Shown: positions 9,538-35,946, counted from the stretch's first letter. The stretch is 64,000 nucleotides of DNA from Patescibacteria group bacterium (GCA_018969615.1 JAGWYA010000001.1:169141-233140), one strand, 5' to 3'. The notes: generated from the sequence alone by a model not told the origin. Numbers and translations: made by a program.

Positions 9538-9541
9538 AGTG

Positions 9542-9811
9542 TTATTGTTTATCTGAGAACTTCAATAAAATGATCGTCGCCGACACCAGGACGGCGGTCA
9601 CCACGGCGGCATACAGGAACTGCGCCAAAATAGAGTTCTGGCTCAGCGGGAAAAGATAATCGATAAGGGACTTGATCGCCTGATTCCATGCCAGACCCGC
9701 CACCAGACCGAATGCGGCGAGAATATAGCCGATCGTTTGCGTCCTCACTTTGCGCGCCAGTTCGCTGCTCTTCTGCTCAGCTTTTTTCAGTTCGTTCTTC
9801 AGATCTTCCAT
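9542..9811 (-). CDS. Small membrane protein (coiled N-terminus plus 2 TM; DUF5654-like).
   Basis: 89 aa, hydrophobic C-terminal half. Confidence 0.5.
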   Translation of the reverse strand: MEDLKNELKKAEQKSSELARKVRTQTIGYILAAFGLVAGLAWNQAIKSLIDYLFPLSQNSILAQFLYAAVVTAVLVSATIILLKFSDKQ

Positions 9812-9829
9812 ATCCTTATCATCGCGAAT

Positions 9830-14767: not shown

Positions 14768-15067
14768 ATGGACACTAAAGACACTGAAGAGAAAAAGTGC
14801 GAAAAAATGTGCCACGAGCACGGCCGCGGCATGTGCCTTGGCTGCATGTGGCGTAAACACAGTGTTTGGCACTGGGTCATCGCTCTGCTTATCCTTGCGC
14901 TCGTTTTCGTCGTCGGATTCAAGCTCGGCGAATTGAAAGCACGGTTCGATTCCCGTTTCGATGCCGGATACCTGATGGGTCCGACCGGCAGGATTTGGAG
15001 CCGGAACGCCGGACCAGCCGCAGGAACCTGGGGCGAGCCGACGGCAACGACCACGCAAATGCAATAA
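14768..15067 (+). CDS. Small Cys/His-rich membrane protein (CEKMCHEHGRGMCLGC then 1 TM).
   Basis: 99 aa. Strong terminator immediately downstream. TATACT -10-like hexamer upstream. Confidence 0.5.
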   Translation: MDTKDTEEKKCEKMCHEHGRGMCLGCMWRKHSVWHWVIALLILALVFVVGFKLGELKARFDSRFDAGYLMGPTGRIWSRNAGPAAGTWGEPTATTTQMQ

Positions 15068-16872: not shown

Positions 16873-16902
16873 AAAAACTCCCGCTTCAATGCGGGAGTTT
16901 TT
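16873..16902 (+). terminator. Terminator (CTCCCGC-TTCAAT-GCGGGAG plus T5). Also abuts the GNAT gene 3' end.
   Basis: Read directly. Confidence 0.75.
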
Positions 16903-17377
16903 ATCGGTCCAGACGCATGCGGATCTTATAGGGAGAAAAACCGATCGCAGCCCAAAACGCCATCGCTTCTTCGTTCCGCATATCAACGTTCAGCTCGATA
17001 TGCTTCACATTCTTTTTTTCAAACCAGCGAAATGCGTCGTGGACAAGGTGACGGGCAATGCTTTTTCTCCGATGCTGCGGCGGCACAAAAACATCATAGA
17101 TGATCCCGATCTTCTTCACGGCGGCGTATGCCGGAGCCGGTTCAACGCTGACCTGGGCATATCCGACGATCACGCCCGCCTCTTCGGCCACCAAGACCAG
17201 CATATCTTTATTCGATAACCACGCACCGATCTCTTCTTCAAGCCCCTCAAAAGAACTGAATGGCTTGTAATAAGGGTCGAGGCGCCGATGATGCGCAACC
17301 ATGCCCTCCAAAAGAGCGAGTACAGCCGGAATATCTTTTTTCCCTGCAACGCGGATGATCATAAATGACCTACTCAT
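16901..17377 (-). CDS. GNAT family N-acetyltransferase.
   Basis: Acetyl-CoA binding pattern (QHRRKSIARHLVHDAF). Confidence 0.8.
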   Translation of the reverse strand: MSRSFMIIRVAGKKDIPAVLALLEGMVAHHRRLDPYYKPFSSFEGLEEEIGAWLSNKDMLVLVAEEAGVIVGYAQVSVEPAPAYAAVKKIGIIYDVFVPPQHRRKSIARHLVHDAFRWFEKKNVKHIELNVDMRNEEAMAFWAAIGFSPYKIRMRLDR

Positions 17378-18614
17378 AGCGTAACGCTTCGATCGGGTTC
17401 TTCCGGGCCGCCTGCCGAGCGGGATAGATCCCGAATGCGATCCCGGCGATCCCCGAAACGATCAGCGCCAGAATGACCGCGGTCAGCGGGAACGCAAAGA
17501 CCCATCCGATCGAAAAGAAGGTTGAAAGGACGAAATAGATCAGTGCCACGATCAGCGCTCCAAGTGCGATGCCGATCATCCCGCCCACAAATGTCAGCAG
17601 GACCGACTCGATCAGGAATTGCTCCAGGATGTCGCGATTGGTCGCACCGACCGCTTTCCGCAGTCCGATCTCCCGCGTCCGTTCCGTGACCGCAACCAGC
17701 ATGATATTCATAATACCGATACCGCCGACGATCAACGAGATCGAAGCGATGGCGGCAAGGAAAATGGTCAGGATCGATGTAATATTCCCCAGGATCGCCA
17801 GCGCGTCCTGCTGGGTCCGGATCGTAAAGTCATCCTTGTTCGGATCAGTGATGCTGTGATTTCGCCGCAGAAGGAATGTAATGCGCGATTCAACGAACGA
17901 GATATCATAGGCCGGGTTCGCTTCGACGACAATGTCGCTGAAGTACGTGATCCCGAGTAGTTCCCGTTGAGCAACGACCAGCGGCACCAATACAAGATTA
18001 TCCTGATCGATCCCGAACGCACCGGTCCCGCCTTTTTCCAGAACGCCGGTCACGCGGAAGGTTACCTGATCAAGTCTGATCGATTTTCCGATCGGATCCA
18101 GATTCCCGAAGAGCGTTGTCGCCAGACCGGGTCCGATCACCGCCACATGCGCACCCGAATCGACGTCGTTTTTCGTGAACGTGTATCCGCGGCCAACCGG
18201 AAGGTTCCGCACGCCGAAATACTGCTCCGTCGTTCCGTCATAGGTCACTTTCACATCGTTATTCCCGTAAACAGCCTCCGCCTGGCCCCGCACCTCGGGG
18301 ACCGCCGCCGAAACCGAAGGTTCACGGCGGAAGGCATCCGCATCCCGCTCTACCAGCGAAGTGATCACGATACCCTGCGCTGCAGCCGGCGCCGAAAATC
18401 TGCCGCTTCCCGACCCTCCCGGAATGATAAAAATAAGGTTCGAACCGATCCCCTGAACCTGGTTCAGGATCAGGTCCTGCGCCGACTGTCCGATCGACAT
18501 CAAAATGATCACCGAAGCGATGCCGATGACGATCCCCAGCATCGTTAAGACCGAACGCATCTTTCCATGCGCAAGGCTGCGAGTCGAAGTTTTAAAAGCG
18601 TCGCGAAAAAGCAT
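17370..18614 (-). CDS. MacB/FtsX-family ABC transporter permease (efflux module A).
   Basis: N-terminal TM, large periplasmic MacB-PCD-like domain, C-terminal FtsX 3-TM bundle. Confidence 0.85.
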   Translation of the reverse strand: MLFRDAFKTSTRSLAHGKMRSVLTMLGIVIGIASVIILMSIGQSAQDLILNQVQGIGSNLIFIIPGGSGSGRFSAPAAAQGIVITSLVERDADAFRREPSVSAAVPEVRGQAEAVYGNNDVKVTYDGTTEQYFGVRNLPVGRGYTFTKNDVDSGAHVAVIGPGLATTLFGNLDPIGKSIRLDQVTFRVTGVLEKGGTGAFGIDQDNLVLVPLVVAQRELLGITYFSDIVVEANPAYDISFVESRITFLLRRNHSITDPNKDDFTIRTQQDALAILGNITSILTIFLAAIASISLIVGGIGIMNIMLVAVTERTREIGLRKAVGATNRDILEQFLIESVLLTFVGGMIGIALGALIVALIYFVLSTFFSIGWVFAFPLTAVILALIVSGIAGIAFGIYPARQAARKNPIEALRYE

Positions 18615-18616
18615 AT

Positions 18617-19324
18617 TTATTTAAGCGGAGCATTATGCATGTGTTTTGCGGCGACCGGCGCATCGCTTTCCACGAGGCCATCTTTAATGCGGATGATCCG
18701 GTTCGCAAATTCAGCGGTCTGCGTTTCATGCGTGACCAGAATGATCGTACGCCCCTTTTTATGAAGCGCATCGAGTATCTCCATGACCTGCAAACCGGAC
18801 TGCGAGTCGAGGTTTCCCGTCGGCTCATCGGCAAAGATCACGTTCGGGTCGGTAACCAGCGCACGGGCGATCGCCACGCGCTGCTTCTGTCCGCCGGAAA
18901 GTTTCCCCGCCTCCATATGTATCTTTTCCTCCAATCCGACCGAGCGTACCGCCTCTTCGATCCGCGCACGGCGCTGCGCCGGCGCGCCATCGGCATACAG
19001 CAACGGGATCTCCACATTTTCATAGACCGTCAACCGGGAAAGAAGATTGAACGCTTGAAAAACGAATCCCATATCCTTGTTCCGGACATGCGCAAGTTCC
19101 AAGTCGGACATCTCATCGATGCCCCGGCCCTGAAAACGATAGCTTCCGCCGGTCGGACGATCAAGGAAGCTCAAGATATGCAGCAGAGTCGATTTGCCGG
19201 ACCCTGACGGACCCATGATCGAAACGAACTCGCCTTTATCGATCGAAAAATTCACGCCGCGGAGCGCGTTCGTCGATCCCCCTTCGTCATGATATGCCTT
19301 TTGGAGGTCACGTACTTCGATCAT
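18617..19324 (-). CDS. MacB/LolD-type ABC ATP-binding protein (efflux module A).
   Basis: [36 protein letters not shown]. Confidence 0.9.
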
Positions 19325-20859
19325 TGCGTTTTAAGCCCGATATTGAGCACTTGCTCGCCTTCGGTCACGCCCGAGAGTATCTCCACATTACCGTTCTCAT
19401 CCTGAATGCCGGTCGTCACCGGAACCTGAACCACCGTGTTGTTCTGCATTTTTTCCACGAACGTTCCCTGGTCGTTCTGCAGAAGCGCGTACTGAGGCAA
19501 GATCAGTACGTTATCCTTATGCTGCGTTTCGATCGTGATATTGGCGGTCAGGCCGCTCTTGATCCGGGGATCCTGTTTCGTGAATGCGATCTTGATCTGA
19601 TACGTGATAACGCCCTGATTATTGGTCTGTGCCGGCGCGATATAAAAGACCTTTCCGGCGAAGGTTTCATTCGGGAACGCATCAAGCGTCATCGTCGCGG
19701 TATTGCCGATCGTCAGTTTCCCGATATCCGTTTCCGATACTCCGGCGTCAACCTCAAGGCCTTGCGTCCCCAAGATCGAAACAAGCGGGGTTCCGGAAAC
19801 GGCAAGTTGGCCGACTTTCGCATCCTGCTGGGTGAGAACGCCGCTGATCGGCGCGACGATCTCCGCGTTCTGCAGCTTCGCCTGCGCGCTCGCAACCCCG
19901 GCGACCGCCTGATCAACCTGCGCCTGCTGCGCTGCGATATCCTGAGCCGTTGACCCTGCCTGCTTCAGCGCAAGCTGAGCCTGGGTTTGCGCAACCAGCG
20001 CTTCCTGCGATGCAATGTTCTGTGAGATCGTGTTCAGTGCACTGACCGCCGCGTTTACCTCGGTAAGACCCGTCGTGACCGCGGCTTTATCGGTCGCCAG
20101 CTGTGCCGAGGATAGATTAATACTCCCCGCAAGGACCGTTGACATCGTATTTAAAAGATTTTGGGCAACCCCCAAATGAACAAGGTCGTTCTGCAGGATC
20201 GCTTTCAGCGTCGTGGTCGCAAGTGAGGTATTCGTCGTAGTGAGCTCGCTTTGCCATATATTAAGCTCCGACGCAGCCTGCGAGCGAAGATCGGTGACGG
20301 TGGTCGCGGCCTGAGGATTGCTCGTTTGGAAATTCAGCTGCGGCTGGCTTGTTTCCGCGTTCGAGAAAAAGGTATCGAGCTGCGTCCGCACCGCATCATT
20401 CGCCTTCGCAAATCCGCTCGCCGACGTATCGCTGATGCTCGCATAATAATTGGCGAGGTCTTGTTTCGCTTTTTGCAATGCCGCTTCGGACGCCGCAATG
20501 TCCGCAGGCTGCGCACCCGCTTTCAACCCCGCAAGCTTTGCCTGCTGCACTGCAACATCCGCTTGCGCCTGCTGAAGCGAAGCTGAAAGGTCCGCAAGGT
20601 TCAATTGCGCGATCACCTTACCCGCGGTCACCGTATCGCCTAAATTTGCATTGACCGCCGCGATCGTCCCCGTGTTCTGAAACCCGAGCGACACGCTTTG
20701 GGTCGGCGTCGTATTGCCGGTCACAGTTACCGTCTCAGAGATCGATCCGCGCTTAACCGTGATCAGCTGCACCGCGGCAGGATGGCTTTGCCGATACCAT
20801 ACCACGCCTCCGATGCCTACGACTGAGATACCAAGAACAATAAGAATGATTTTTTTCAT
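19321..20859 (-). CDS. HlyD/MacA-type periplasmic adaptor (membrane fusion protein) with a very long coiled-coil hairpin (efflux module A).
   Basis: Signal-anchor, lipoyl/beta-barrel flanks, about 300 aa of A/Q/L-rich coiled coil. Confidence 0.8.
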   Translation of the reverse strand: MKKIILIVLGISVVGIGGVVWYRQSHPAAVQLITVKRGSISETVTVTGNTTPTQSVSLGFQNTGTIAAVNANLGDTVTAGKVIAQLNLADLSASLQQAQADVAVQQAKLAGLKAGAQPADIAASEAALQKAKQDLANYYASISDTSASGFAKANDAVRTQLDTFFSNAETSQPQLNFQTSNPQAATTVTDLRSQAASELNIWQSELTTTNTSLATTTLKAILQNDLVHLGVAQNLLNTMSTVLAGSINLSSAQLATDKAAVTTGLTEVNAAVSALNTISQNIASQEALVAQTQAQLALKQAGSTAQDIAAQQAQVDQAVAGVASAQAKLQNAEIVAPISGVLTQQDAKVGQLAVSGTPLVSILGTQGLEVDAGVSETDIGKLTIGNTATMTLDAFPNETFAGKVFYIAPAQTNNQGVITYQIKIAFTKQDPRIKSGLTANITIETQHKDNVLILPQYALLQNDQGTFVEKMQNNTVVQVPVTTGIQDENGNVEILSGVTEGEQVLNIGLKTQ

Positions 20860-20938: not shown

Positions 20939-22792
20939 CTAATCGCGTCGCCTGAATAATCTGCTTGAGTTGATCAGGGGGAGAAAATCGGTCGCAAAAT
21001 TATAGAATGCGGCGAGCGCGGGGCCTGCGATCCCCGTAAAGACCAGTGCAAAACCCGCAAGGTTCGATACGAACCAAATGATCATATCGCCGTAGATCAC
21101 CGAAGACGTCCGGCGGCCGAGATCGATCATCTCCGGCAAGCGCTCAAGCTGATCGGTCAGGATCACGATATCCGCAGCCTCCACGGCAACCGCCGTGCCG
21201 CCCTTCCCCATCGCAACGCCGACCGTGGCCCGTGCAAGGGACGGCGCGTCATTGATCCCGTCGCCGACCATAACAACCACGCCGTCTTTTTCCAGTTCCT
21301 CAAGACCGTGCAATTTTTCTTCCGGCTTCATGCCGGCGTGGTATTCATCGAGTCCCAACGCTTCCGTAACCCGCCGGGCAACCGCCTCGTTATCTCCTGT
21401 GAACATGACGATCCGGGCAACGCCGATCTTCTTGAGTTGCCGGAGCGTCGCCGCAGCTTCATGCCTTGGAACATCCGCAACGGCGATCGCACCGATGCAG
21501 ACACCGTTCACGCCAATCAATGAAACCGTTTGGCCATACTCGGTAACCATCTGCCGGATCTTCTCCCGCAGATCCGCCGGCAACGCAATATGTTCATTCT
21601 GCAAAAAAAGCTCATTGCCGGCCACGATCGCATCGGCACCGGCGATCGCCTTGGTTCCCTGTCCTTTAACCGTTTCAAATGTATCGGGATCGGCGATCTG
21701 GGGAACTTTCTCAAGTGCGCCGCGGAAGATCGCGCGGCCGATCGGATGCTCTGAGAACTTCTCAGCTATGCCCACCATGCGCCAAAACTGTTCCTCGGTG
21801 ACTGCCGGATCGATCACAACATCCCTGATCTTAAAGTTCCCATAGGTCAGCGTTCCGGTCTTGTCGAGAACCAGCGTCTTTGTCTTTCCCAGTTGATCAA
21901 GCCACGCACCGCCTTTCACGATCACGCCGCGTTTTGCCGCATAGCCCATTGATGCCGTGATCGCCAGAGGGATCGCGACTGCCATATCATCCGCGCACGC
22001 GACCAAAAACACCGCTGCGGTCATCGACAAGGAACGGCTGATCAGATACGTCCCGGCGCCGATCACTCCCACGATCGGCAGGAAGATCGCCGCAAATCGG
22101 TCGGCGAGTTTTTCGACATGCGATTTGTTCTTGGACGCCTCGCGGATCAGTTCCGCCATCTGTTCGATCGTCGAATCCTTACCGACGCGCGTCGCGCGCA
22201 CCTTGATCACGCCGGAATCATTGAGCGTAGCGCTGAACACATGATCCCCCGGTATTTTCTGGACCGGAACCGATTCACCGGTAACCGGCGCTTCGTTCAC
22301 CGACGCTGATCCGAAGATCACCACGCCGTCGATCGGAATGCGCGCGCCCGCCTTCACCACTACGATATCCCCTTTCTTGATCTCACTGCTGGGAACCTCT
22401 GTTACAGCCCCGCCCTGCTCGCGCAACGCGGAAAGCGGTTTCAATTTCAATAATTGTTTCACCGCATCATAAGTCCGTGATTCGGAATACCACTCAAGCC
22501 AATTCGCCGAGGTGATCATCAAGATAATGAACATCGCCGAGGTTATCTCAACGCTGGCAAATGACGCGATCAAAGCGACAAAATTGAACGTATCAATGCT
22601 GATCCGGCGCTCAGAGGTCGCCTTCACAGCCTGCCAGGCTGTCGGAAGCGCGCCGATCCCCGCAACAATGATCAGCGGGAGATGGTTCGCCGGATACAAA
22701 AGATCCTCCCCGAACGCGAGCAGCAGCGCACCGATGATGGCGACCTCCCGGTACGGCGATTCGAAAATACGGAAAAAAGTTTTTTTATTCAT
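20939..22792 (-). CDS. Cation-transporting P-type ATPase, specificity unknown. Lacks an N-terminal metal-binding domain.
   Basis: DKTGTLT, TGDN (MFTGDNEAV), GDGINDAP. Only 617 aa. TM region has CADD rather than a canonical CPC. Confidence 0.85.
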   Translation of the reverse strand: MNKKTFFRIFESPYREVAIIGALLLAFGEDLLYPANHLPLIIVAGIGALPTAWQAVKATSERRISIDTFNFVALIASFASVEITSAMFIILMITSANWLEWYSESRTYDAVKQLLKLKPLSALREQGGAVTEVPSSEIKKGDIVVVKAGARIPIDGVVIFGSASVNEAPVTGESVPVQKIPGDHVFSATLNDSGVIKVRATRVGKDSTIEQMAELIREASKNKSHVEKLADRFAAIFLPIVGVIGAGTYLISRSLSMTAAVFLVACADDMAVAIPLAITASMGYAAKRGVIVKGGAWLDQLGKTKTLVLDKTGTLTYGNFKIRDVVIDPAVTEEQFWRMVGIAEKFSEHPIGRAIFRGALEKVPQIADPDTFETVKGQGTKAIAGADAIVAGNELFLQNEHIALPADLREKIRQMVTEYGQTVSLIGVNGVCIGAIAVADVPRHEAAATLRQLKKIGVARIVMFTGDNEAVARRVTEALGLDEYHAGMKPEEKLHGLEELEKDGVVVMVGDGINDAPSLARATVGVAMGKGGTAVAVEAADIVILTDQLERLPEMIDLGRRTSSVIYGDMIIWFVSNLAGFALVFTGIAGPALAAFYNFATDFLPLINSSRLFRRRD

Positions 22793-23990
22793 AGCGCAAT
22801 GCTTCTGCGGGCTCCATTTTCGCCGCCTGACGGGCGGGCAAGATCCCGGACAGAACGCCGGTAACGAACGTTATCAGCAAAATGATCCCTAATTCGCTGT
22901 AATCGATCGTTGAAAAACTGAACAAGCCGTTCACTCCCAGCGATCCTGCAGCCGCCCCGATCCCCGCCGCGATCGCTAATCCTAGTAAGATCCCGAGAAT
23001 GCCTCCGACGAGCCCGATAAAACCGGATTCCACTAAGAACAACGAAAGAATGGCATCGCTCGTCGCGCCGACCGCTTTCATGATCCCGATCTGCCGCGTC
23101 CGCTCCACGACGGACGTATACATCGTATTCATGATCCCGACGGCTCCGACGAGCAGCGAGACCAATGAGATGATCAAAAGCGCAAGCTCAATGATGCCTA
23201 AGATGGTTCCGACGATCTGAGCGGTCTTCTCGGGAGTTAGGATCGTAAAATCTTTCACTTCTTTCTGCTTTTCAAGCTGGTACCTCACCTGAAGCGCCAC
23301 CAGATCGATATTCGCGCCGGGATCCACCTGAACGATCGCCGACACCGCCCCCGGCGCCACGCCGGAGATCGCATGGAACAGGTCCCAGGACATATAAAAA
23401 GAGTTGTCATCGGTCTGATTTCCAGACCGTGCCAGGATCCCCGCCACCCGCAGGCGCTTGGACTGAATGATGATCTCGTCGCCGATCCGGATGTTATTTT
23501 TGAACAAACTCGTTCCCGCAAGATACCCCAAAATGATATCGTTCGACTGCGGATCGGAAGGCCACGCCCCCTGATACATCTGCAGTCCTTCTGATTTCTC
23601 AAAGATCGCCTGCAGATAATCCAGACGCGATGCGTGCACAAAGACCGCTTTCTTCTCTCCCTCAAATTCCGCGTTCACCGTGCCAATATCCACCGGCATC
23701 GCCATCGCTACGCCGGGGACCCGCTCGAGATCGATAATATCGTTATAGTTGAATTTCTGACCGCCCATGAGACCGGTCAGGATCGCCGTTTCTTTCCCCG
23801 GAACGATGATCAGAAGGTCGTTCCCCAGCATTTGCAGCTGGCCGTTGATCGCCGCGCTCACGCCGTTGCTCAGCGAGATGATCACCACGACCAGCATGAT
23901 GCCGATCACGATCCCCACGATGGTCAGCCAGCTTCGGAGCTGGCGATACCGGATGCTTTTCAGTGTGAGCAAGAAATAATCCTTGAGCAT
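22785..23990 (-). CDS. MacB/FtsX-family ABC permease (efflux module B).
   Basis: Same architecture as 17370..18614. Start at Met36; Met27 alternative at 24017. Confidence 0.8.
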   Translation of the reverse strand: MLKDYFLLTLKSIRYRQLRSWLTIVGIVIGIMLVVVIISLSNGVSAAINGQLQMLGNDLLIIVPGKETAILTGLMGGQKFNYNDIIDLERVPGVAMAMPVDIGTVNAEFEGEKKAVFVHASRLDYLQAIFEKSEGLQMYQGAWPSDPQSNDIILGYLAGTSLFKNNIRIGDEIIIQSKRLRVAGILARSGNQTDDNSFYMSWDLFHAISGVAPGAVSAIVQVDPGANIDLVALQVRYQLEKQKEVKDFTILTPEKTAQIVGTILGIIELALLIISLVSLLVGAVGIMNTMYTSVVERTRQIGIMKAVGATSDAILSLFLVESGFIGLVGGILGILLGLAIAAGIGAAAGSLGVNGLFSFSTIDYSELGIILLITFVTGVLSGILPARQAAKMEPAEALRYE

Positions 23991-23994
23991 AGGT

Positions 23995-24882
23995 TTATTG
24001 CGTATAGATCTTCGCATGCGTCCGATGTCCCGGGATCGTCTTGCCGTCGCGGATCGTAATGATCTGATCGGCCCGTTCCGCAATATGCGGATCATGCGTG
24101 ACGATGATAAGGGTCTTCTTCTCTTTTTTATTGAGGTCGATAAGCATCTCCAGGATGCGATTACCGGTCACCGAATCAAGGTTTCCCGTCGGCTCATCAC
24201 CGATAATGATCTCGGGGTCGTTCGCCAAAGCACGGAGGAGGGCAACGCGCTGCTGTTCTCCGCCCGACAGCTCGTACGGCCGATGGTCCATGCGGTCCCC
24301 GAGGCCGATCTCGCGGAATCGATCCCGCATCTGAGCGCGCAATCCGCCGTCGCCGTTCCGCGCAAAAATAAGCGGAAGCAGGGCGTTATCATATGCATCA
24401 AGCCAGGGAACCAAATTATACTGCTGGAATACAAACCCGAACTTCTTCGAGCGAAGTTCAGCCCGGTCATCATCTGAGATCTTCGTGATCGGCGTCCCTT
24501 CCAAAAAAAGACCGCCCGAGGTCGGCGTATCAAGAAGGCCGATCATATTCAAAAGCGTGCTCTTCCCTGACCCGCTCGCACCGATGATCGCCGTAAAATC
24601 TCCCTCCCAAATATGGACGTTGATCCCGCGAAGAACCTCGGTCTTTGCCTCGCCTTCGCCGAAAACCTTCCACACGTCGTGCAGATGGATCAGCGGCTCT
24701 CCCTGAAAACGCTTCGGGTCGGTACGAAACCGCGCGGCGCACAGGTCGCTGCAAAAGGAAAAGGTCTTCCCGTCAGCATGCACCTCTCCTACCGGTTTCA
24801 TACCCGCAAGGTCCATCCCGCAGACGGGATCCCTGCGGTCACTGCCGTTCCCGGCTGAATGTGATGCTGAGGATGAGTGCAT
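23995..24882 (-). CDS. ABC ATP-binding protein with an N-terminal YHS/TRASH metal-binding domain (efflux module B).
   Basis: N-terminus DPVCGMDLAGMKPVGEVHADGKTFSFCSDLCAARFRTDPKRF fits the YHS/TRASH Cys pattern, followed by [36 protein letters not shown]. Confidence 0.8.
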   Translation of the reverse strand: MHSSSASHSAGNGSDRRDPVCGMDLAGMKPVGEVHADGKTFSFCSDLCAARFRTDPKRFQGEPLIHLHDVWKVFGEGEAKTEVLRGINVHIWEGDFTAIIGASGSGKSTLLNMIGLLDTPTSGGLFLEGTPITKISDDDRAELRSKKFGFVFQQYNLVPWLDAYDNALLPLIFARNGDGGLRAQMRDRFREIGLGDRMDHRPYELSGGEQQRVALLRALANDPEIIIGDEPTGNLDSVTGNRILEMLIDLNKKEKKTLIIVTHDPHIAERADQIITIRDGKTIPGHRTHAKIYTQ

Positions 24883-24887
24883 AAGAA

Positions 24888-26459
24888 TTATTCTGCGGAA
24901 ACCGCCGCAAGGCGCCCCTCCTGAGCGCCGCTCACGATCTCAACAGAGTCACCGTCCGTAATGCCGGTTTCGACCGGCGTCCGTTCAAGCTGCGATTCAG
25001 AGGTCACGCTCTGCATGCCCTCAGGCACCAGCTTTACATACGATGTCGCGCCGTCCTTATAAACCGCCAACTCGGAGACCTTAAGAACACCGGTCTTTTT
25101 AGTAGAAAGGATCGTTACATCGGCGCTCATGCCCGACCGCACTTCTTTTCCCTGCGGATCGAACGCAATATTGACCCGGTAGTATTTATCCTCGGTCTTT
25201 ACGATCTCTTGCGGATCAATGGACGTCACCGTGCCCGTGAACGACATGCCCGGGAACGCATCCAATGCGATGCGCACGCTGTCGGTAACCCCTTCGCTTG
25301 CTTCCACCTGCGCGATCTCCAGCTCGGATACGTCCGCCTGTATCTTGTAATCATTCGTCACCAGTGACACCGCAGGTTGCGTCGGGTGGAATATCTCTCC
25401 GACGCTGACTGAAAGCGCGGAAACCTTCCCGGCCGCCGGAGCGCGAAGCGTCGAGCGGTCGATGTTATCCTGTATCGCGGCAAGCTGGCTTTCCGCCTCC
25501 TGCACCGCGGATTCAGCGATCGTCACATCCTCTGTCCGCGCAGCCGCTTGCTTCAAGGCAAGTTGATTCCCGTACAGCGTGACGTTCGCCTGCGCAAGCG
25601 TATACTTTTCTTCCGCGGACGCCAGCGCGGTGATCGCGCCATCCACATTCGTACGAGCGGTGGATACCGCAAGCCGATAACCGTCGATCGTCGCTTGCGA
25701 GAACAGGACCGAAGCGGAAACATCATTGGTCGCCGAAGCGAGCTGATTCAAATAGCTCGCTACGCTTGTAAGATCATTCTTTGCGGCGCTCTCATATGAC
25801 GACAGATCGGCGGCGGCCGCAAGTGTAGGAAGCGACGTACCCCATACGTTCAAAAGCGGCTCCATCGAAAGACGGGAAGAATTGATGCTGTATTTCAATG
25901 CCTGATCCACCGGCAAGACAAGGTCCGGCGTCATGCTTCGCGGATTACTGAAAAGCTGATCCGTTTTTGCATGGACCGCATCATCCGATTGGGTATACGC
26001 CGCTTTGATCGCATCGATAAGCCCTTTCTGAGCTTCCGCTGCCGCGATCTGCGCGCTGGAAAGCTGCGCCGCGGCGACACTGATCTCTTCGGGCGTCGCT
26101 CCTGCAAGCAACTTGGCAAGGTCTGCTTTGCGCTGAGCAACGACAGCGGTAAGCCCCGCCGCCTGGATCGAAAGATCTTTTGTATCAAGGCTCATGAGCT
26201 GCTGACCCGCCTGCACCAGGTCCCCCTCATGGACAAAGACCTTCGCAACGGTCCCGGAAAAAGGAAATTCGAGCGAAAAATCGTTCTGTGCGACCGCCTC
26301 ACCCCGCACCTTCACGGATTCCTGCAGGTCCCCGCGTTCGACGGGAAAATACAAAAATGCGGTCGGCGACGGCTTCAGATACTTTTGGTACACCCAAAAT
26401 GAGATCACCGCAACGGCAGCGATGATAAGAGCTGCAATATAATAAGAGACCTTTTTCAT
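24888..26459 (-). CDS. HlyD/MacA-type periplasmic adaptor with a long coiled coil (efflux module B).
   Basis: Start at Met20 (MKKVSYYIAAL, signal anchor). Architecture parallels 19321..20859. Confidence 0.8.
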   Translation of the reverse strand: MKKVSYYIAALIIAAVAVISFWVYQKYLKPSPTAFLYFPVERGDLQESVKVRGEAVAQNDFSLEFPFSGTVAKVFVHEGDLVQAGQQLMSLDTKDLSIQAAGLTAVVAQRKADLAKLLAGATPEEISVAAAQLSSAQIAAAEAQKGLIDAIKAAYTQSDDAVHAKTDQLFSNPRSMTPDLVLPVDQALKYSINSSRLSMEPLLNVWGTSLPTLAAAADLSSYESAAKNDLTSVASYLNQLASATNDVSASVLFSQATIDGYRLAVSTARTNVDGAITALASAEEKYTLAQANVTLYGNQLALKQAAARTEDVTIAESAVQEAESQLAAIQDNIDRSTLRAPAAGKVSALSVSVGEIFHPTQPAVSLVTNDYKIQADVSELEIAQVEASEGVTDSVRIALDAFPGMSFTGTVTSIDPQEIVKTEDKYYRVNIAFDPQGKEVRSGMSADVTILSTKKTGVLKVSELAVYKDGATSYVKLVPEGMQSVTSESQLERTPVETGITDGDSVEIVSGAQEGRLAAVSAE

Positions 26460-26576
26460 AGCGCCGATTTCTCTCTCAGTATACCATACGCATCGGCACC
26501 TGACGGATCCGCTCAAACAACAAAAAACCCCCGATAAGAAAGGGGTCTTTTGGCGATCAACCGCTAATCGAAACGA

Positions 26577-26879
26577 TTAGTAGTTATCGCGTCCGCGTCC
26601 AAAACCGCTGTCCCGGCGCGGTGCGCGCGGTTCAAGCGGGCGGGCTTCGTTGACCGTCAATGAACGGCCTCCGAGCATCTGGCCATTGAACATGTCAATC
26701 GCCTTGTCAGCATCCGCATCGGACTCGAACTCTACGAAACCGAATCCTTTGGACCGGCCCGTCATCTTATCCATGATAACGATCGCTGAACTTACCGCAC
26801 CGGCCTTGGAAAACTCGTCGCGCAACTCATCCTGAGTCGTCGCGTACGGCAATCCGCCGACGTATAATTTCTTTGCCAC
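26577..26879 (-). CDS. RRM-type RNA-binding protein with a Gly/Arg-rich tail.
   Basis: RNP-2 LYVGGL and RNP-1 KGFGFVEF. 100 aa. Confidence 0.9.
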   Translation of the reverse strand: MAKKLYVGGLPYATTQDELRDEFSKAGAVSSAIVIMDKMTGRSKGFGFVEFESDADADKAIDMFNGQMLGGRSLTVNEARPLEPRAPRRDSGFGRGRDNY

Positions 26880-27587: not shown

Positions 27588-28127
27588 TTATTTCCGGAGC
27601 AGTTCGGGATGCGCTTCGCGGAGATGCTCGACCTTCGGGCGAATCACCAATGCGGAATACGACCGGTCGGCATGCCGCTCATAATACCTCTTATGATATT
27701 CCTCGGCGGGATAGAATGCCGTTAAAGGAGCTGTTTCAGTAACGATCGGCCCGGGATATCGGCTTTCTTTTTCAAGCATCATGATCCGCTGTACGACCGC
27801 GGCATGCTGCGCTTCCGTCGCATAGAAAACGACCGAACGGTACTGCGTTCCGATGTCATTTCCCTGCCGGTTCCGCGTCGTCGGGTCGTGGCTCATAAAA
27901 AAAACATCAAGAAGCTGGCCGAATGAAATGAGTCCCGGATCATATTCCACGAGGATCACCTCGGCATGGCCTGTGGTTCCGGTCGACACCTGCTCATAGG
28001 TCGGATCCGGCAGGTCGCCGCCGGCATATCCCGGCGTTACCGCGGTAACGCCTTTCAATTCCAAAAATACAGCTTCAGTGCACCAAAAACATCCGCCGCC
28101 GAATCCTACCTGTTCTGTTCGTGCCAT
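27588..28127 (-). CDS. msrA: Peptide methionine sulfoxide reductase MsrA.
   Basis: [12 protein letters not shown] active-site motif. Start at Met16, overlapping the msrB 3' end. Confidence 0.9.
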
Positions 28128-28525
28128 TGATGAGTATCCGGGATGAATTGTAATGCGACCGAGTTCATGCAATATCGCTTTCCGGTCGGGGGAGGTCCGT
28201 CATCGAACACATGTCCCAAATGCGAGCCGCACCGCGCACAGCGAATTTCCGTCCGATGCATATCAAACGAATCATCCGGCACTTCTTCCAATCGGTCCGG
28301 CGCGAGCGGCGCATAATAACTCGGCCATCCCGTTCCTGATTCGAACTTTGTGTCTGCGCGAAACAATGCAAGTCCGCACGCAGCGCAGACATAGTGCCCG
28401 CCCGTCTTCGGCTCATCCGTTCCGCATGTGAACGGCGCTTCAGTCCCCCGTTCCCGGAGAACACGATACTGCTCAGGCGTAAGCAATGCCCTCCATTCAG
28501 CCTCACTTTTCTGGATCTTCTCCAT
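28106..28525 (-). CDS. msrB: Peptide methionine sulfoxide reductase MsrB (zinc-binding).
   Basis: CxxC...CxxC zinc site (CAACG...CARCG) and RYCMNS catalytic motif. Confidence 0.9.
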
Positions 28526-28549
28526 AACCTCAGTATATCCTATTTTCTC

Positions 28550-29314
28550 CTACTGGCTCTGCGGCGGAAGATACCACCCCCGCATCCTCGTTGGGGACCG
28601 TTGCGCGGAATCGGGAATGCTGCTGACACCGAATGCCGCGATCGTACTCGTCGCGGTCAGCGGACCAAGAACAATAACCCGGTCATTCTGGGCGAAATCA
28701 ACCCCTGAAGGGAAAACCGTCTTCGGACCGACAACCACTGAAAAAATATTTCCTTGGCGGTCGCTCAATGTAAACCCATCCGATGTCACCGCCATGATCG
28801 TACCGATGTGCACCGTATGGGAATGCTGAGGACCGAAAGAGCGGTACAACCCGCCGAAGACCGGTAGCCGCGATCGCGCCGCCAAAGAATTGAACGTATC
28901 ATGCAGCGGCGTCAGCCCGACGACAAATGCGCCGACGATCGCGAGCGCAAGGACCGCTCCAAGCGAATACAACAAAGGGCGGCGATACACGAACCGGAAC
29001 CGAAGCGCCATAAGCTCAAGGCACGCAACGAACGCGATGACCGCCACGATGACCAGCCACGGAACCGCCGAGACCAGCGCCCACAAGCCGCGCGCGCCGA
29101 ACGCCGGAAGGAACCATGCTCCGGTCCGGTCAAGCGTAAAGAAAACGAAGCTCGCAAAAAAGATCAATGCCAGAAATGCGGCAAGCGAACCGACAAGAAG
29201 AAGCCCTGAGAGCAGCATAAAATGCCACCGGGGGCGGATCGCGGCGTTTCCTGACCGTATTTTCTCCATGACCGCTTCGCGGATGGGATGCGGGGAAGAT
29301 GGTTGTTCGCTCAT
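28550..29314 (-). CDS. Putative anti-sigma factor / membrane protein downstream of the ECF sigma.
   Basis: 4 bp overlap with the sigma gene. Cytoplasmic N-terminus, 4 TM, extracytoplasmic C-terminal domain. Confidence 0.55.
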   Translation of the reverse strand: MSEQPSSPHPIREAVMEKIRSGNAAIRPRWHFMLLSGLLLVGSLAAFLALIFFASFVFFTLDRTGAWFLPAFGARGLWALVSAVPWLVIVAVIAFVACLELMALRFRFVYRRPLLYSLGAVLALAIVGAFVVGLTPLHDTFNSLAARSRLPVFGGLYRSFGPQHSHTVHIGTIMAVTSDGFTLSDRQGNIFSVVVGPKTVFPSGVDFAQNDRVIVLGPLTATSTIAAFGVSSIPDSAQRSPTRMRGWYLPPQSQ

Positions 29315-29883
29315 ACTGCTGATCGCATATCTTCAATGATCTTTTTGAGGATCTTTCGTCCCCGATTGAGGCGTATCCCGACGGTGGATACGGGAATGTG
29401 CATAATATCCGATATCTCCTGATAGCTCATCTCTTCCAGATAGGCAAGGATGAGCGGTTCGCGGTATTTAGGATCAACCGCGCTCAAACTTTTATTCAAA
29501 AACGTCCGCATATCCTTTTCGTTCGCCTCCTGATCGGCGGTCTCGTTCGCAAAGAGGTACGGCATGATCTCGTCGAGATCGAAGGTAAACGAAGGCAATC
29601 GCTTCACTTTATAGATCCGGTTAATGAACTCATTATGGGCGATCCGGTAGATCCAGGGTGAGAAACGCATCTGAACATTGAAGCTCCGGATGTTTGCGTA
29701 CGCCTTAATGAAAATATCCTGGACCAGGTCCTCGATATCATGCGTGTTTGGAATGAACTTTCTGCCGTAGCGGAGAAGCTTCGCCTGATACCGGTCCACA
29801 AGGATACCAAACGCCTCGGTGTCGCCTTGCTGGACCCGCGCAGCGACGGTCTCGTCTGATTCTTTATGTGAAGACTGGCCCAT
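29311..29883 (-). CDS. ECF-type RNA polymerase sigma factor (sigma-70 regions 2 and 4).
   Basis: Region 2 (DLVQDIFIKAY) and region 4 HTH (YQEISDIMHIPVSTVGIRLNRGRKIL). Confidence 0.9.
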   Translation of the reverse strand: MGQSSHKESDETVAARVQQGDTEAFGILVDRYQAKLLRYGRKFIPNTHDIEDLVQDIFIKAYANIRSFNVQMRFSPWIYRIAHNEFINRIYKVKRLPSFTFDLDEIMPYLFANETADQEANEKDMRTFLNKSLSAVDPKYREPLILAYLEEMSYQEISDIMHIPVSTVGIRLNRGRKILKKIIEDMRSAV

Positions 29884-31832: not shown

Positions 31833-32219
31833 TTATCTCCGCTCAGCGAGCGCGCCAACTGCTTTTACAAGTTCATCGAGCCGATAATTGCTTTTTACAA
31901 AATAGCCAACCACATTGAATTTCTTTGCCTGTTTTTCCCTGCTGTCACTTCCCGAGACCGACACTACTGCTACTTTGATATCTTTTGTCTTTGGATCACC
32001 TCGTAAATGCTCCAAAAACTGAAAACCATCCATCGATGGCAAATACATATCAAGCCAAATAAGATCGGGCTTGCATTTTTTGAGGAGCTCTAAGGCGTCT
32101 TCGGCGGTCCGCGCGAGAACGGCGCTGTAACCCGCTTCTTCCAGCTCCAAGACAATAAGCTTGTTCAATGATGGATCGTCTTCAACTACAAGAATCGTCG
32201 TACTTGCTTTGCTCTTCAT
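31833..32219 (-). CDS. Single-domain response regulator (CheY-like receiver).
   Basis: ILVVEDD, phospho-acceptor D in LIWLDMYLP, KVAVVS conserved K region. Confidence 0.85.
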   Translation of the reverse strand: MKSKASTTILVVEDDPSLNKLIVLELEEAGYSAVLARTAEDALELLKKCKPDLIWLDMYLPSMDGFQFLEHLRGDPKTKDIKVAVVSVSGSDSREKQAKKFNVVGYFVKSNYRLDELVKAVGALAERR

Positions 32220-32261
32220 ATGCCAATAAGTATATCAGATTTGTCTGTTTTTGCATAGAAA

Positions 32262-32636
32262 CTATTCTCCCATCATGCTCAACACCGTTCCGACGATCGC
32301 TTCGATCGATGCGTTGCTTTTCACGATATAGCCGTTCGCGCCGGATTCCATCCCGCGCTTCATCTGTCCTTCACGGGCAAGGTTGGAGAGGATCAAAACC
32401 GGAATATGCGCGGTGGATGGGTCGCGTCTGATCTCTTTCAGAACCTCAAAACCGTTCATTTTCGGCAGCACCAGATCAAGCAATACCAGATCGGGCACGT
32501 GTTTACGGACCGCGAAAACCCCCTCATCCCCGGTCTTAGCGACGCGAAGGGTGATTCCCCGCTTCTCGAACGCGAATTGAAGCGGCTTGATCAAAGAATC
32601 CTCATCTTCAATTAAAAGAACATCAAGATTAGGCAT
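32262..32636 (-). CDS. Single-domain response regulator (CheY-like receiver).
   Basis: Start at Met68 of the track ORF (MPNLDVLLIEDED), just downstream of the kinase. LVLLDLVLP, PVLILS. Confidence 0.8.
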   Translation of the reverse strand: MPNLDVLLIEDEDSLIKPLQFAFEKRGITLRVAKTGDEGVFAVRKHVPDLVLLDLVLPKMNGFEVLKEIRRDPSTAHIPVLILSNLAREGQMKRGMESGANGYIVKSNASIEAIVGTVLSMMGE

Positions 32637-34776
32637 GTGTTTTCTTTTCCTCTTCACGTTTGACCGTAAAATAGAACTTCGCCCCTTTGCCGCGTCCCGC
32701 CGATTCAAAATGAGCATCGCCGCCATGGGCGCGCGCGAAAGCCCGCACAATGAACAACCCAAGCCCGAATCCGTTCGGCGACATCCGCTTCGCGGCTTCG
32801 CCGCGGAAGAACTTCTCGAACATATACCGCTGCTCATCAGGAGAAACGCCGATGCCGTTATCAGAGACGGAGATCTCTAAAAACGGTTCGTTGCCATACA
32901 CTCTTTTCTGGCCGGCCAGGGTCACGGAACCGCCCGATTCGGGAACATACCAGAATGCATTGTTCAAAAGAACTTCCAGCATCTTTTTCATCTTTTTCGT
33001 ATCGCACTCCACTGTATCGGATCCCGGCTCAAGATTAATGGTCAGATCGATCTTCTTAGAATGGACAAGGAACTCATTTTCTTTAACGATCTCATCGATC
33101 AGCGGGCGCAGCCGACAAGGCTCCTTTTTCAGCTCAAGATTCTTATCTTCCACATCAAGCGCCGTGAGCATATCATCCAAACGCTCAATGACAAAGAGGG
33201 AGTTCTTATAGGTATCCTTGAGAAATTCTTTCTGGGCCTTCAGGTCGACGGTTCCATCCAAAAGAAGCTCTGTGCTCCAGCGCACGGCGGATAATGGCGT
33301 CCGCAATTGATGCGATACCACGGAAATAAAGTTAGACTTCGCCTCGTCGAGCTTTTTCAGATCGCCGTACAAACGGGCATTGTTGATCAGCACGCCGGCC
33401 TCGCTGGTCAAATGATCAAGCAGGCGGAGATCTTCGGTCGTAAAAAGGTCGTTCGAGGACTTTGCTCCGATGAAATATATCGCAATCATCTGACTGTCGG
33501 ACGAGATAGGGATCGCCAGCGTAAAATCAAGCTTGACCAATTCCTCATATGCTGCCGGCAACAGATCAATATGGACAACTTTTAATCGCACTCTGTCACG
33601 CTCCAATTCATGGATAATTTCATCTCGGTTAAGAATAAATCCCTCGTTCATTTTCAAAAACTCGATCAACGGGTTATTAGGAGATAACTCAATGTCTTTT
33701 TTAGAGTCACTGCTTGCTAAAAAAGTATCCTTAGAAGTTAATACTGCGAACTCAGCTTCGCTAACTTTAAAAGTACTTTTTACAATCTCATTAAAAATTT
33801 TTAAGAGCCTTTCCAGATCAAGGCTCGCCGTATGAATTGTCGAGGTCAGCTCTTCAATTACATTATTAAAGTTATAATGTTTATGAAAAAATATCCTGTC
33901 AGTCGCTTTTTCAATAAACTGCTTCAGCGGCTCAAACGTAAGCGTAATGACAAGAGATGAAAGGATAAGCGAATAGATGTATCCGAGTCCTGTATACTGG
34001 CTCACGGACGCAACAATAACGATATAGACAAAGCTGATTGCCGCAAAAACCAACGAGAATATCACGCCCATCCTCACCACAACCCAAATTTCCAACAGAT
34101 GATACCGGACGATCGCATAAGTCATAAGGATAACCATAAACGTGGCGGAGATCGGTCCGACCGTATTAAAATTCTGCGCTTTAAATACCAGCGGCAAAAT
34201 TAAATTCGTAATTACCGATGGGATCAGCATAAGCGCCAACCCCAAAAGCGCATATTTTAATCTCAATACATCAACGCCATGTGCTTTGTGATATTTGTAA
34301 AGCAGATAAAATAGAGATCCCAAAATATAGCCCAAAACAAGCATGCCATAAAATGGGTATGCGCTCCCGTATGTATTGATAATATGATTATTTCTGATGC
34401 CAACCGAAGTAACCACCTTGTTAACCAAGACAAGGATAATAAATACGCTAGGGGCCGCCAATATAAAAACAGGCGCAAGCAAACTACGACTAAAACTTTT
34501 CGGTTCTAATTCATATACAAAAAAGGCGAGGAAGGCGACGATGACCAGCGGTGAAATAAAAGTTATTTTACTCACCCAAAGTGCGGGAGGGAAATTTATT
34601 GTCGCCCAAAGCGAAAGGATCCAGCCCGATGCGCCAAGTGCGAAAAAAAACAGGCCCAAATTTAACGCCTTTTTGGGATTCTCATAAATAACATACGCCC
34701 CAAGAAGTATGTTTAAAATCCCGGTGGCTAAAAGAGGAAGTGATTCCATCATCTTTAGCATACCAAGGGTCGGCAC
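32629..34776 (-). CDS. Sensor histidine kinase with an N-terminal multi-TM (7TMR-like) domain, GAF-like linker, HisKA and HATPase_c.
   Basis: H-box SHQLRTPLSAVRW, N/G boxes (LLNNAFWY, SDNGIGV, GFGLGLFIV). Confidence 0.9.
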   Translation of the reverse strand: MPTLGMLKMMESLPLLATGILNILLGAYVIYENPKKALNLGLFFFALGASGWILSLWATINFPPALWVSKITFISPLVIVAFLAFFVYELEPKSFSRSLLAPVFILAAPSVFIILVLVNKVVTSVGIRNNHIINTYGSAYPFYGMLVLGYILGSLFYLLYKYHKAHGVDVLRLKYALLGLALMLIPSVITNLILPLVFKAQNFNTVGPISATFMVILMTYAIVRYHLLEIWVVVRMGVIFSLVFAAISFVYIVIVASVSQYTGLGYIYSLILSSLVITLTFEPLKQFIEKATDRIFFHKHYNFNNVIEELTSTIHTASLDLERLLKIFNEIVKSTFKVSEAEFAVLTSKDTFLASSDSKKDIELSPNNPLIEFLKMNEGFILNRDEIIHELERDRVRLKVVHIDLLPAAYEELVKLDFTLAIPISSDSQMIAIYFIGAKSSNDLFTTEDLRLLDHLTSEAGVLINNARLYGDLKKLDEAKSNFISVVSHQLRTPLSAVRWSTELLLDGTVDLKAQKEFLKDTYKNSLFVIERLDDMLTALDVEDKNLELKKEPCRLRPLIDEIVKENEFLVHSKKIDLTINLEPGSDTVECDTKKMKKMLEVLLNNAFWYVPESGGSVTLAGQKRVYGNEPFLEISVSDNGIGVSPDEQRYMFEKFFRGEAAKRMSPNGFGLGLFIVRAFARAHGGDAHFESAGRGKGAKFYFTVKREEEKKTHA

Positions 34777-34846
34777 AATAGCAAATCAACGCCAAAAAAG
34801 TCTTTAATAAATGAGAAAATCTCGCTTTAAAAAATAACAAGCCGAA

Positions 34847-35416
34847 TTATTCGGCTTGTTTAGCAAATTTATTTATATTTTCTTCGGACACCGGACTGAT
34901 GAAAGCGATCATTTTCCATTCCCCGTTCGCACCATATACAAATGGCTGACCGGAAAAAGTAAAATTTATTTTCGCGCTTTCTTTAAGTAGCCTGAAAAGC
35001 GCAGGGCGAGTGGTTCCGCAAAAATATTTATATCCACAAGACTGTGCATATATAAAAATGAAGTACATAAGCTTATAGAAAAGCTTCGCATCCCCTCTCT
35101 TTTCGCGGATAATAGCCACTCGCGAAACCTCAAAGGATTTGTCCGAGTCCAAATCAAAATTTATCTCATACAATCCTCTGAAATTAGGCCGCTTCCCCGC
35201 TGGAATAAGCCTCGCGGTACCAACGGGCCGGCCGTCTTCCAAAACAAGAAGGTGGACTGATTGTTTATCAAATTTATCCGCGTCCAATCCAGATTTTTTC
35301 GGATGCACCACTCCATATTCTTGAGCGAACACGACATACCTTAAGCGAAAGCATTCAAGCAGATCATTTCGATCCCGTGCAATTCGTATCTCAATATTGC
35401 GTTTATCCATTGCCAC
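34847..35416 (-). CDS. GNAT-fold acyltransferase (N-acyl amino acid synthase / autoinducer-synthase-like).
   Basis: RLRYVVFAQEYG...ARLIP is the acyl-homoserine-lactone/N-acyl-amino-acid synthase-like N-terminal pattern. Inference. Confidence 0.45.
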   Translation of the reverse strand: MAMDKRNIEIRIARDRNDLLECFRLRYVVFAQEYGVVHPKKSGLDADKFDKQSVHLLVLEDGRPVGTARLIPAGKRPNFRGLYEINFDLDSDKSFEVSRVAIIREKRGDAKLFYKLMYFIFIYAQSCGYKYFCGTTRPALFRLLKESAKINFTFSGQPFVYGANGEWKMIAFISPVSEENINKFAKQAE

Positions 35417-35620
35417 CTCGCTGGTAAAGACCTACTTTGAGCATAAAGGATTCCCTTTAAATATCAAGGTAACGCGATCGTCAAAATAGGACAGCGCATC
35501 CGGCGAGAAGGCAATCTCAGCACCGAGTTCGAATACCGAAAGGTCGGCGCGCAAGAGTTCGGCGCCTTGGTGCCCAAAAAACATACCTCCTGACACAGGA
35601 GGTATGTTTATATCCCAAAA

Positions 35621-35896
35621 TTATCGATGCGGGCAGCCGGCCCAGCAACAGGGACGGCGCATGCCCTTGTGCATCTTATCCAGACCGACGGTGATCCGGC
35701 GGGCTCGCGTTTCGTCCTGTTTCGCCGAGGTCACCCAGCAGATCCATTCGTTCCGCGCAAGCGGCGTGATCTCAGCCCACAATTTATTTGCCCGGGCATC
35801 ATGCCCGATCGCCCTACGAAGATCCGCGGGTATTCTATGAACCGTACCCGATGCTATTTTTAAGTGCGCCATTGTTTTTATCATAACAAATTCCAT
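35621..35896 (-). CDS. YdeI/OmpD-associated (DUF1801-related) family protein.
   Basis: IPADLRRAIGHDARANKLWAEITPLARNEWICWVTSAKQDETRARRI is the YdeI_OmpD signature. Own terminator downstream (CATACCTCCTG-ACA-CAGGAGGTATG). Confidence 0.7.
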   Translation of the reverse strand: MEFVMIKTMAHLKIASGTVHRIPADLRRAIGHDARANKLWAEITPLARNEWICWVTSAKQDETRARRITVGLDKMHKGMRRPCCWAGCPHR

Positions 35897-35946
35897 TAAA
35901 AAGCCGCCTGCGCTTTAATAAGACGGCCCATGCTCCGGATCGGAGC

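Follow-up and report, generated by a model that had tools for sequence, protein, structure and literature searches.

The window analysed here is a 64,000-nt stretch of DNA from a Patescibacteria group bacterium (GCA_018969615.1, JAGWYA010000001.1:169141-233140), in which seven consecutive genes on the minus strand encode two MacB-like ATP-binding cassette (ABC) modules with a P-type ATPase between them. The first, module B, starts with a membrane-anchored HlyD/MFP-type periplasmic adaptor (adaptor B, 523 aa, 24888..26459), followed by an ATPase subunit of 295 aa in which an N-terminal YHS/TRASH domain precedes a MacB/LolD-type nucleotide-binding domain (YHS-ABC, 23995..24882) and by a MacB-type permease (permease B, 401 aa, 22785..23990). 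The P-type ATPase (617 aa, 20939..22792) has a P1B fold with eight predicted transmembrane helices. Module A bears a HlyD adaptor (adaptor A, 512 aa, 19321..20859), a MacB/LolD-type ATPase (ABC ATPase A, 235 aa, 18617..19324) and a permease with MacB_PCD and FtsX domains (permease A, 414 aa, 17370..18614); it is a paralogue of module B without YHS, with identities of 43% between the nucleotide-binding domains and 29% each between the permeases and between the adaptors. An earlier reading made from the sequence alone (the sequence-only reading) had placed the seven genes at these positions, and Pfam and NCBIfam confirmed its domain assignments. The triad of adaptor, YHS-ABC and permease on the one hand and the P-type ATPase on the other are two separate items of novelty of the same rank.

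With PF04945, whose gathering score is 30.3, the YHS domain (residues 18-60, 24703..24831, checked in translation) reaches 34.3 bits (E=2.3e-8), as had been anticipated for the N-terminal 60 residues, and ABC_tran (PF00005) covers residues 84-232. The putative ligands are spaced D18-x2-C21-x22-C44-x3-C48. In an alignment of 90 YHS-ABC homologues (57-75% identity) these four residues are invariant, and V20, M23, F43, F52 and F59 are invariant or nearly so. The spacing agrees with the published definition of the YHS pattern, (Asp or Cys)-x2-Cys-x19-22-Cys-x3-Cys, and exactly D-x2-C-x22-C-x3-C has been described for the YHS domains of Cu-ATPases and of an adenylyl cyclase from M. phlei (PMC4626032). 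PF04945 and PF00005 occur together in nearly all of the best 120 database relatives (57-91% identity), and the few relatives without a precomputed YHS match still hold the motif; hence neither a chance match nor faulty assembly accounts for the fusion. The NCBI gene model of the identical protein is shorter (268 aa) and starts at Met28, so that D18 and C21, half of the ligand set, are lost. This shorter model could be taken to mean that the fusion stems from a frameshift, from mis-assembly or from a miscalled start codon, but the long N-terminus and the four ligands recur in the 90 homologues, in many independent assemblies and in 31 species-level genomes, and we rejected this explanation as having a negligible probability. 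Because the long N-terminus is conserved in the homologues, the ATG at 24882 appears to be the true start of the gene.

An AlphaFold2 model of YHS-ABC built on the 90-sequence alignment had a mean predicted local distance difference test score (pLDDT) of 86 and a predicted template modelling score of 0.85, with pLDDT values of 89-96 for residues 20-60 of the YHS domain. In the model the YHS helices span residues 46-59, and the nucleotide-binding domain starts its first strand at residue 65. The linker thus predicted comprises about five residues and would fit a regulatory domain better than a mobile chaperone. Foldseek comparison of the model with the PDB yielded MacB, MJ0796, YbbA, Spr0694, BceA and LolD (40-47% identity, E about 1e-25); these matches span the nucleotide-binding domain only (about 225 of 295 residues), and the YHS extension was covered by no solved ABC subunit. 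The best NCBIfam matches of the motor were LolD, MacB, YbbA and DarD, all of them below the equivalog cut-offs (MacB NF007826: 215 versus 966; LolD TIGR02211: 221 versus 308). Both searches bear out the MacB/LolD-type motor that had been read from the sequence.

Permease B matches PF12704 (MacB_PCD, 90.9 bits) and PF02687 (FtsX, 68.5 bits) and shows the layout of type VII permeases: an N-terminal transmembrane helix is followed by a large MacB_PCD domain outside the cytoplasm, and the FtsX domain at the C-terminus has four transmembrane helices. Adaptor B matches HlyD_D23, HlyD_3 and Biotin_lipoyl_2 in Pfam and reaches 118.6 with TIGR01730 (cut-off 94.9). Judged by this permease architecture, by a nucleotide-binding domain of the MacB/LolD/FtsE clade and by its HlyD/MFP adaptor, module B is assigned to the type VII ABC systems. 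Its scores lie so far below the equivalog cut-offs that no named E. coli system can be its orthologue. The combination of adaptor, ATPase and MacB_PCD/FtsX permease is that of Spr0693-0694-0695 in S. pneumoniae, YknXYZ in B. subtilis and MacAB-TolC in E. coli. Furthermore, the nucleotide-binding domain superimposes on MacB-type structures (5xu1, 5lj7, 5lj9; 40-47% identity), and by analogy module B probably uses the mechanotransmission mechanism. In contrast to the known MacAB-type pumps, whose ATPase subunits carry no extra domain, an N-terminal YHS domain is obligatory on the ATPase subunit of the triad. We would expect no TolC partner in Patescibacteria, which is an assumption, as no search aimed at TolC was made.

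We scanned one genome per species and found 31 species-level loci encoding the YHS domain together with the beginning of the nucleotide-binding domain. They are labelled as Patescibacteria lineages or as 'bacterium' metagenome-assembled genomes, except for one Gammaproteobacteria-labelled contig in a co-assembly bin; the lineages include Paceibacterota, Saccharibacteria, Magasanik-, Harrison-, Campbell-, Wolfe- and Andersenbacteria. The order adaptor, YHS-ABC, permease on one strand is found in every locus that is long enough: the adaptor lies directly upstream of YHS-ABC in 32 of the 32 triad loci where this is readable, and the permease follows YHS-ABC directly in 31 loci. Triads of this kind make up a conserved family of type VII (MacB-like) ABC systems that is essentially specific to Patescibacteria. 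At one Saccharibacteria locus (L017, 4632-7080) two tandem permease genes follow YHS-ABC, and an extra ABC/FtsX pair lies upstream of the adaptor. In a profile search of a 1.84-billion representative library with the YHS domain and the first strand, multi-YHS repeat proteins dominate; the fusion family falls into a handful of 50% clusters there, so this library provides no measure of family size.

Some members of the family carry the database label 'ABC-type lipoprotein export system ATPase subunit/YHS domain-containing protein'. Literature searches on YHS/TRASH together with ABC/MacB, on MacB/FtsX together with copper resistance and on P1B ATPases together with Patescibacteria retrieved no description of the fusion; one match from C. 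glutamicum concerned an ordinary ftsX gene and was discarded. The architecture is already recorded by database pipelines but has not been studied, in agreement with the sequence-only reading, which knew of no characterisation.

Metal genes recur beside the triad in other genomes. A P1B ATPase gene is directly adjacent on the same strand in nine loci (L002, L005, L011, L013, L016, L019, L026, L031 and L054), with a gap of between -4 and about 500 nt in most cases and of about 1.1 kb in L013. Of the 31 species-level loci, 8 have such an ATPase immediately next to the triad. The ATPases differ in kind: those of L005, L011 and L026 combine CPC in transmembrane helix 4 (TM4) with an N-terminal HMA domain (CopA-like), those of L013, L016 and L031 combine a TM4 CPH with a His-rich/HMBD N-terminus (CopB-like), and those of L002, L019 and L054 bear CPD in TM4 together with HMBD. 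At L001/L006 a TPCP-type ATPase lies 2.3 kb off on the opposite strand. Five triad loci encode a repressor of the CsoR family (PF02583, 77.8 bits); its gene sits between permease and ATPase in L016, and L028 contains csoR as well as a CopZ-like gene. With at least one copper-linked neighbour at 11 of about 35 triad loci, these frequencies can be set against chance: genomes of about 1 Mb in Patescibacteria carry an estimated one to three P1B ATPases and, if this estimate holds, about one adjacency would be expected in roughly 400 kb of flanking DNA. Because the triad pairs with several unrelated ATPase types, gene order argues for a functional tie to metal export in general, with copper most often involved, and we regard a metal role of the triad, probably in copper handling, as well supported by these comparisons.

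The same neighbours bear on the explanation that YHS is a structural zinc module, which would stabilise or dimerise the ATPase subunit and would have metal genes nearby as a by-product of genome compaction. The TRASH-type fold of ribosomal protein L24e does bind a structural metal (PMC4626032), a structural site would likewise keep its ligand set strictly invariant, and the extracytoplasmic parts of the pump show no metal-binding signature. However, the recurrence of three or four unrelated kinds of P1B ATPase together with CsoR is hard to credit to chance, the variant with one Asp and three Cys is shared with the YHS domains of Cu-ATPases and of the Cu-activated cyclase, and the paralogous module A lacks YHS altogether. 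We consider this explanation quite unlikely.

Seven triad loci also encode an unannotated Cys-rich protein of about 324 aa (L002 2385-3359; the protein is also found in L005, L013, L014, L016, L026, L054, L067, L082 and L083). One transmembrane helix lies at its N-terminus and SGCGA repeats at its C-terminus; it shares the conserved motif 'PCCGNSTYFPDCNHGMA' and matches no Pfam family. As it recurs beside YHS-MacB triads and copper ATPases, it is a candidate for a new copper-cluster component. The CPD ATPases (L002 10064-12229, L019 from 1188, L054 from 9891, and L163) possess an N-terminal HMBD (PF19335), and their TM4 signature also lies outside the named P1B subclasses. In Saccharibacteria, a csoR-copA cluster (L058 4894-10500, with the same layout in L061, L065 and L070) encodes a CopA that carries an HMA domain and a free-standing YHS protein of 66 aa (7938-8138), which belongs to the subtype of the fused domain. 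The cluster also encodes a protein rich in His and Met (8162-8803) and a membrane protein fused to HMA (9064-10095).

The P-type ATPase of the window matches E1-E2_ATPase and Hydrolase in Pfam and scores 485 with TIGR01525 (cut-off 346). The motifs TGES (171), DKTGT (310), SEHP (347-350, HP at 349), TGDN (465) and GDGIND (510) and eight hydrophobic segments, with a hydropathy consistent with MA, MB and M1-M6, assign it to the P1B-type (heavy-metal) P-type ATPases. The sequence-only reading had listed DKTGT, TGDN and GDGIND and remarked on a missing N-terminal HMA domain and CPC motif, all of which proved correct: we found no HMA or HMBD match, no CPC and no CxxC in the protein, which contains two cysteines only. 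At the position of the canonical (A)CPC(A), TM4 carries the motif ACADD (residues 265-269, 21986..22000, supported by checked translation and by alignments). Alignment to A. fulgidus CopA and to ZntA places C266-A267-D268 on the C-P-C triplet; relative to ZntA (4umv), C392 and C394 become C266 and D268, K693 becomes A579 and D714 becomes N598. Over the full length, 7qbz and 4umv are the PDB entries that match best. Among 22 family members (52-84% identity) A265, C266, A267, D268, D269, N577, N598, D602, P605, N608 and S609 are invariant; the family motif in transmembrane helix 6 (TM6) is NFxTDF, and the window ATPase reads YNFATDFLPLINSS there.

ACADD was found in 54 of 80 metagenomic loci, and the signature 'CADD ... 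NFxTDF' is kept at 37-42% identity (metagenome loci L145-L168). Because the signature persists at this distance, the clade is broad and old, and CADD ATPases form a large P1B-like clade, apparently confined to Patescibacteria. The published TM4 signatures are CPC, CPH, SPC, PCP, SCA with HNxxT, and CSC (PMC13460109, bioRxiv 2020.01.10.902569); compared by these signatures, none of the seven described subclasses fits ACADD. From P1B-1 (CopA; CPC in TM4, YN in TM5, MxxSS in TM6 and usually N-terminal HMA domains) the window ATPase differs in that TM4 reads CAD, TM6 deviates from MxxSS, HMA and CxxC are missing and TIGR01511 stays below its cut-off (351.8 versus 397). The residues of P1B-2 (ZntA; CPC in TM4, Lys in TM5, Asp in TM6) are not found either, and ACADD stands in place of the CPH, SPC, PCP, SCA and CSC that are assigned to P1B-3, -4, -5, -6 and -7. 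P1B-2 is nevertheless the nearest described group overall, because the subfamily hidden Markov model TIGR01512 scores above its cut-off (426 versus 313.5). The fold, the eight transmembrane helices and the catalytic motifs are those of P1B-2 (ZntA) and P1B-4 (CoaT/CzcP), with TIGR01525 and TIGR01512 both above cut-off; what sets the CADD enzyme apart from ZntA, CoaT and CzcP is C-A-D-D instead of CPC or SPC, an extra invariant Asp602 and the absence of a metal-binding domain.

The sequence-only reading had linked the fusion to a neighbouring P-type ATPase and proposed that the YHS domain might deliver or sense Cu/Ag for this pump. The genomic link holds in part: a P1B ATPase adjoins the triad in the nine loci named above, but two thirds of the triads have no ATPase nearby. 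The particular arrangement of the window, a triad followed by a CADD ATPase, is shared only by relatives of 84-85% identity (L087, L088). In L085, the next relative on a long contig, which has a YHS-ABC of 75% identity, a small PspC gene takes the place of the ATPase. L089 lacks module B; an ATPase of 65% identity has PspC, MarR and a pump resembling module A as its neighbours there. Across about 52 metagenomic loci the neighbours of CADD ATPases are uninformative (ECF sigma factor, DEAD-box helicase, BipA, short-chain dehydrogenase); the ATPase gene adjoins a YHS-ABC gene in none of them, and any MacB-type module is nearby in 4-5.

In principle the YHS domain could be a tethered metallochaperone, which would hand Cu/Ag or another metal to the adjacent ATPase that lacks a metal-binding domain, in the manner of CopZ or of the archaeal CopM-CopA pair. 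Such a role could account for the overlap of 8 nt between the permease B and ATPase genes, for the lack of HMA, HMBD and CxxC in the window ATPase and of a CopZ-like gene in the window, for the P1B ATPases beside triads in nine other loci and for the stand-alone YHS protein in the Saccharibacteria copA operon. However, most of the partner ATPases elsewhere already own an HMA or HMBD domain, and so many triads stand without any ATPase. Delivery to this ATPase is poorly supported, because the site (C-A-D-D, N, D) is one of hard rather than thiophilic ligands, adjacency was found in 0 of about 52 loci and otherwise in relatives of 84-85% identity only, and a linker of about five residues leaves little freedom for docking. 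We judge a chaperone role to be distinctly improbable. The sensing half of the proposal is plausible, and the metal theme holds at other loci; sensing is more likely than delivery, and what is regulated is most likely the ABC motor itself.

The interpretation that we favor, and to which we give even odds, is that YHS senses metal in the cytosol and thereby gates the ABC motor to which it is fused, with module B as a member of the type VII triad family. We infer that a soft transition metal, most likely copper, is bound by the YHS domain on the cytoplasmic side. Metal binding would alter ATP binding or dimerisation of the nucleotide-binding domain, since YHS is predicted to end only about five residues before its first beta-strand. 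The mechanotransmission cycle would then run only at high cytosolic metal, and the extracytoplasmic domain of the permease would, together with the adaptor, remove a substrate from the membrane's outer face. As cargo, the simplest choice would be the metal just exported by a neighbouring P1B ATPase, a two-step arrangement analogous to CopA plus Cus. The most far-reaching form of this proposal, namely that the triad is the first ABC machine with a metal-sensing ATPase subunit, that it disposes of metal in two steps with a P1B ATPase in Patescibacteria, which bear a cell wall and are poor in regulators, and that CADD represents an eighth, non-thiophilic P1B subclass, is tentative, and we deem it somewhat unlikely as a whole.

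Several observations weigh against metal sensing and metal clearance by the triad. At about two thirds of the triad loci, metal genes are missing from the surrounding 6-8 kb, and neither CsoR nor CopZ nor a classical Cu ATPase was found in the 64-kb window. Cu(I)/Ag(I) is an unlikely substrate of the CADD ATPase, because its predicted site is rich in carboxylates and amides with a single Cys. TRASH-like folds may also hold structural zinc. Furthermore, alignments of 33 homologues each of permease B and adaptor B revealed no conserved Met/His/Cys cluster in the extracytoplasmic parts, where the sole conserved residues of this kind are H119 of the permease and M444 of the adaptor; as a Cu(I) site like that of CusB/CusF is absent from these parts, the pumped substrate may not be a metal ion.

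This last point also speaks for a further explanation, in which metal would gate a pump for a non-metal substrate (peptide, lipid, lipoprotein or toxic compound) or would control an FtsEX-like drive of an extracytoplasmic enzyme. Known type VII systems act on macrolides, peptides, lipoproteins, haem or the targets of bacitracin, or else activate hydrolases (PMC5985334, PMC12646458), and a YHS-less module A follows in the same operon. However, no gene for a peptide precursor or a hydrolase is conserved beside the triad, and its recurrent neighbours are metal genes only. We consider a non-metal substrate unlikely.

MetNI and ModBC provide a precedent for gating via the motor subunit: a C-terminal domain on their nucleotide-binding subunit binds a cytosolic ligand and brings about trans-inhibition. 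YHS-ABC is similar in that a small putative ligand-binding domain resides on the ATPase subunit at the cytoplasmic side, but MetNI and ModBC are importers whose C-terminal domain binds the transported substrate, whereas the YHS domain is N-terminal, belongs to an exporter-type system and would bind metal. The closest precedent for the domain itself is the class IIIc adenylyl cyclase of M. phlei, in which 1-10 uM copper, acting through a C-terminal YHS domain with a linker of 8 residues, activates a catalytic domain that depends on dimerisation (PMC4626032). Both proteins share the same Asp-x2-Cys-x22-Cys-x3-Cys pattern and a short linker to the catalytic domain; they differ in that the partner here is an ABC ATPase, YHS is N-terminal, and copper switching, which was tested for the cyclase, is put forward here by inference.

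Genomic coupling of TRASH/YHS domains with P1B ATPases is also known from archaeal cop clusters (the TRASH chaperone CopM, the regulator CopT/CopR, and CopA) and from some bacterial Cu-ATPases with an N-terminal YHS domain; in the triad, by contrast, YHS is fused to an ABC motor and not to a P-type pump, a regulator or a free chaperone. The pairing of a P1B ATPase with an envelope pump that contains an adaptor resembles CopA and CusCFBA of E. coli. In contrast to Cus, an RND system with Met-rich Cu(I) sites and an outer-membrane channel, the triad uses an ABC motor and has no such conserved sites. Unlike csoR/copZ/copA clusters, the window holds no member of this set, although 11 other triad loci carry such genes.

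As a rule, ABC exporters are regulated through transcription or by their substrate. A metal sensor borne by the motor would, if confirmed, add a new mode of control to the MacB/type VII class, and a route by which bacteria with very few transcription factors answer metal stress. The pairing with P1B ATPases suggests how monoderm ultra-small bacteria may clear exported metal from the cell surface. The ACADD family is widespread in Patescibacteria and outside the described P1B subclasses, which makes its ion specificity a sharply defined question. The significance of both items rests on genomic inference and the host organisms are not easily cultured; the immediate value lies in well-defined proteins for heterologous biochemistry.

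The genes of modules B and A and the P-type ATPase gene are probably cotranscribed. A strong terminator-like hairpin on the minus strand (26521..26552; 12-bp stem followed by a T run) lies between the start of adaptor B and an upstream RRM gene (26577-26879, with an RRM_1 match) and is the likely 5' boundary of the operon. The stop of permease B and the start of the P-type ATPase overlap by 8 nt (ATGAATAA), which indicates co-translation. A gap of 80 nt separates the ATPase from adaptor A, and no hairpin comparable to that at 26521..26552 was found at this boundary. Because of the upstream hairpin, the 8-nt overlap and the missing hairpin before module A, the seven or eight genes from adaptor B onward probably form one transcription unit. 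The eighth would be a GNAT acetyltransferase gene (16901..17377, minus strand, Pfam), which begins within the last codons of permease A and is probably the last gene of the unit; L088 and L085 keep this gene order. A promoter scan gave matches no more numerous than in shuffled sequence.

Upstream of the operon (27588-29883, minus strand) lie genes for MsrA, MsrB and an ECF (extracytoplasmic function) sigma factor (29311-29883). The end of the latter is overlapped by a gene for a 254-aa membrane protein without Pfam match, which may be an anti-sigma factor. The order MsrA, MsrB, PNPOx, RRM and triad is kept in L087. On the plus strand, a candidate open reading frame (ORF) of 99 aa (14768-15067), which overlaps minus-strand ORFs, has no Pfam match; in its predicted product a hydrophobic helix comes after an N-terminus rich in Cys and His (CEKMCHEHGRGMCLGCMW). 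The GC content is 0.44-0.47 at 32000-36000 versus 0.51-0.57 elsewhere in the window; this region may be foreign DNA and includes the ORF of a 715-aa histidine kinase (32629-34776). Finally, an ORF of 1994 aa is located at 50982-56966 on the minus strand.

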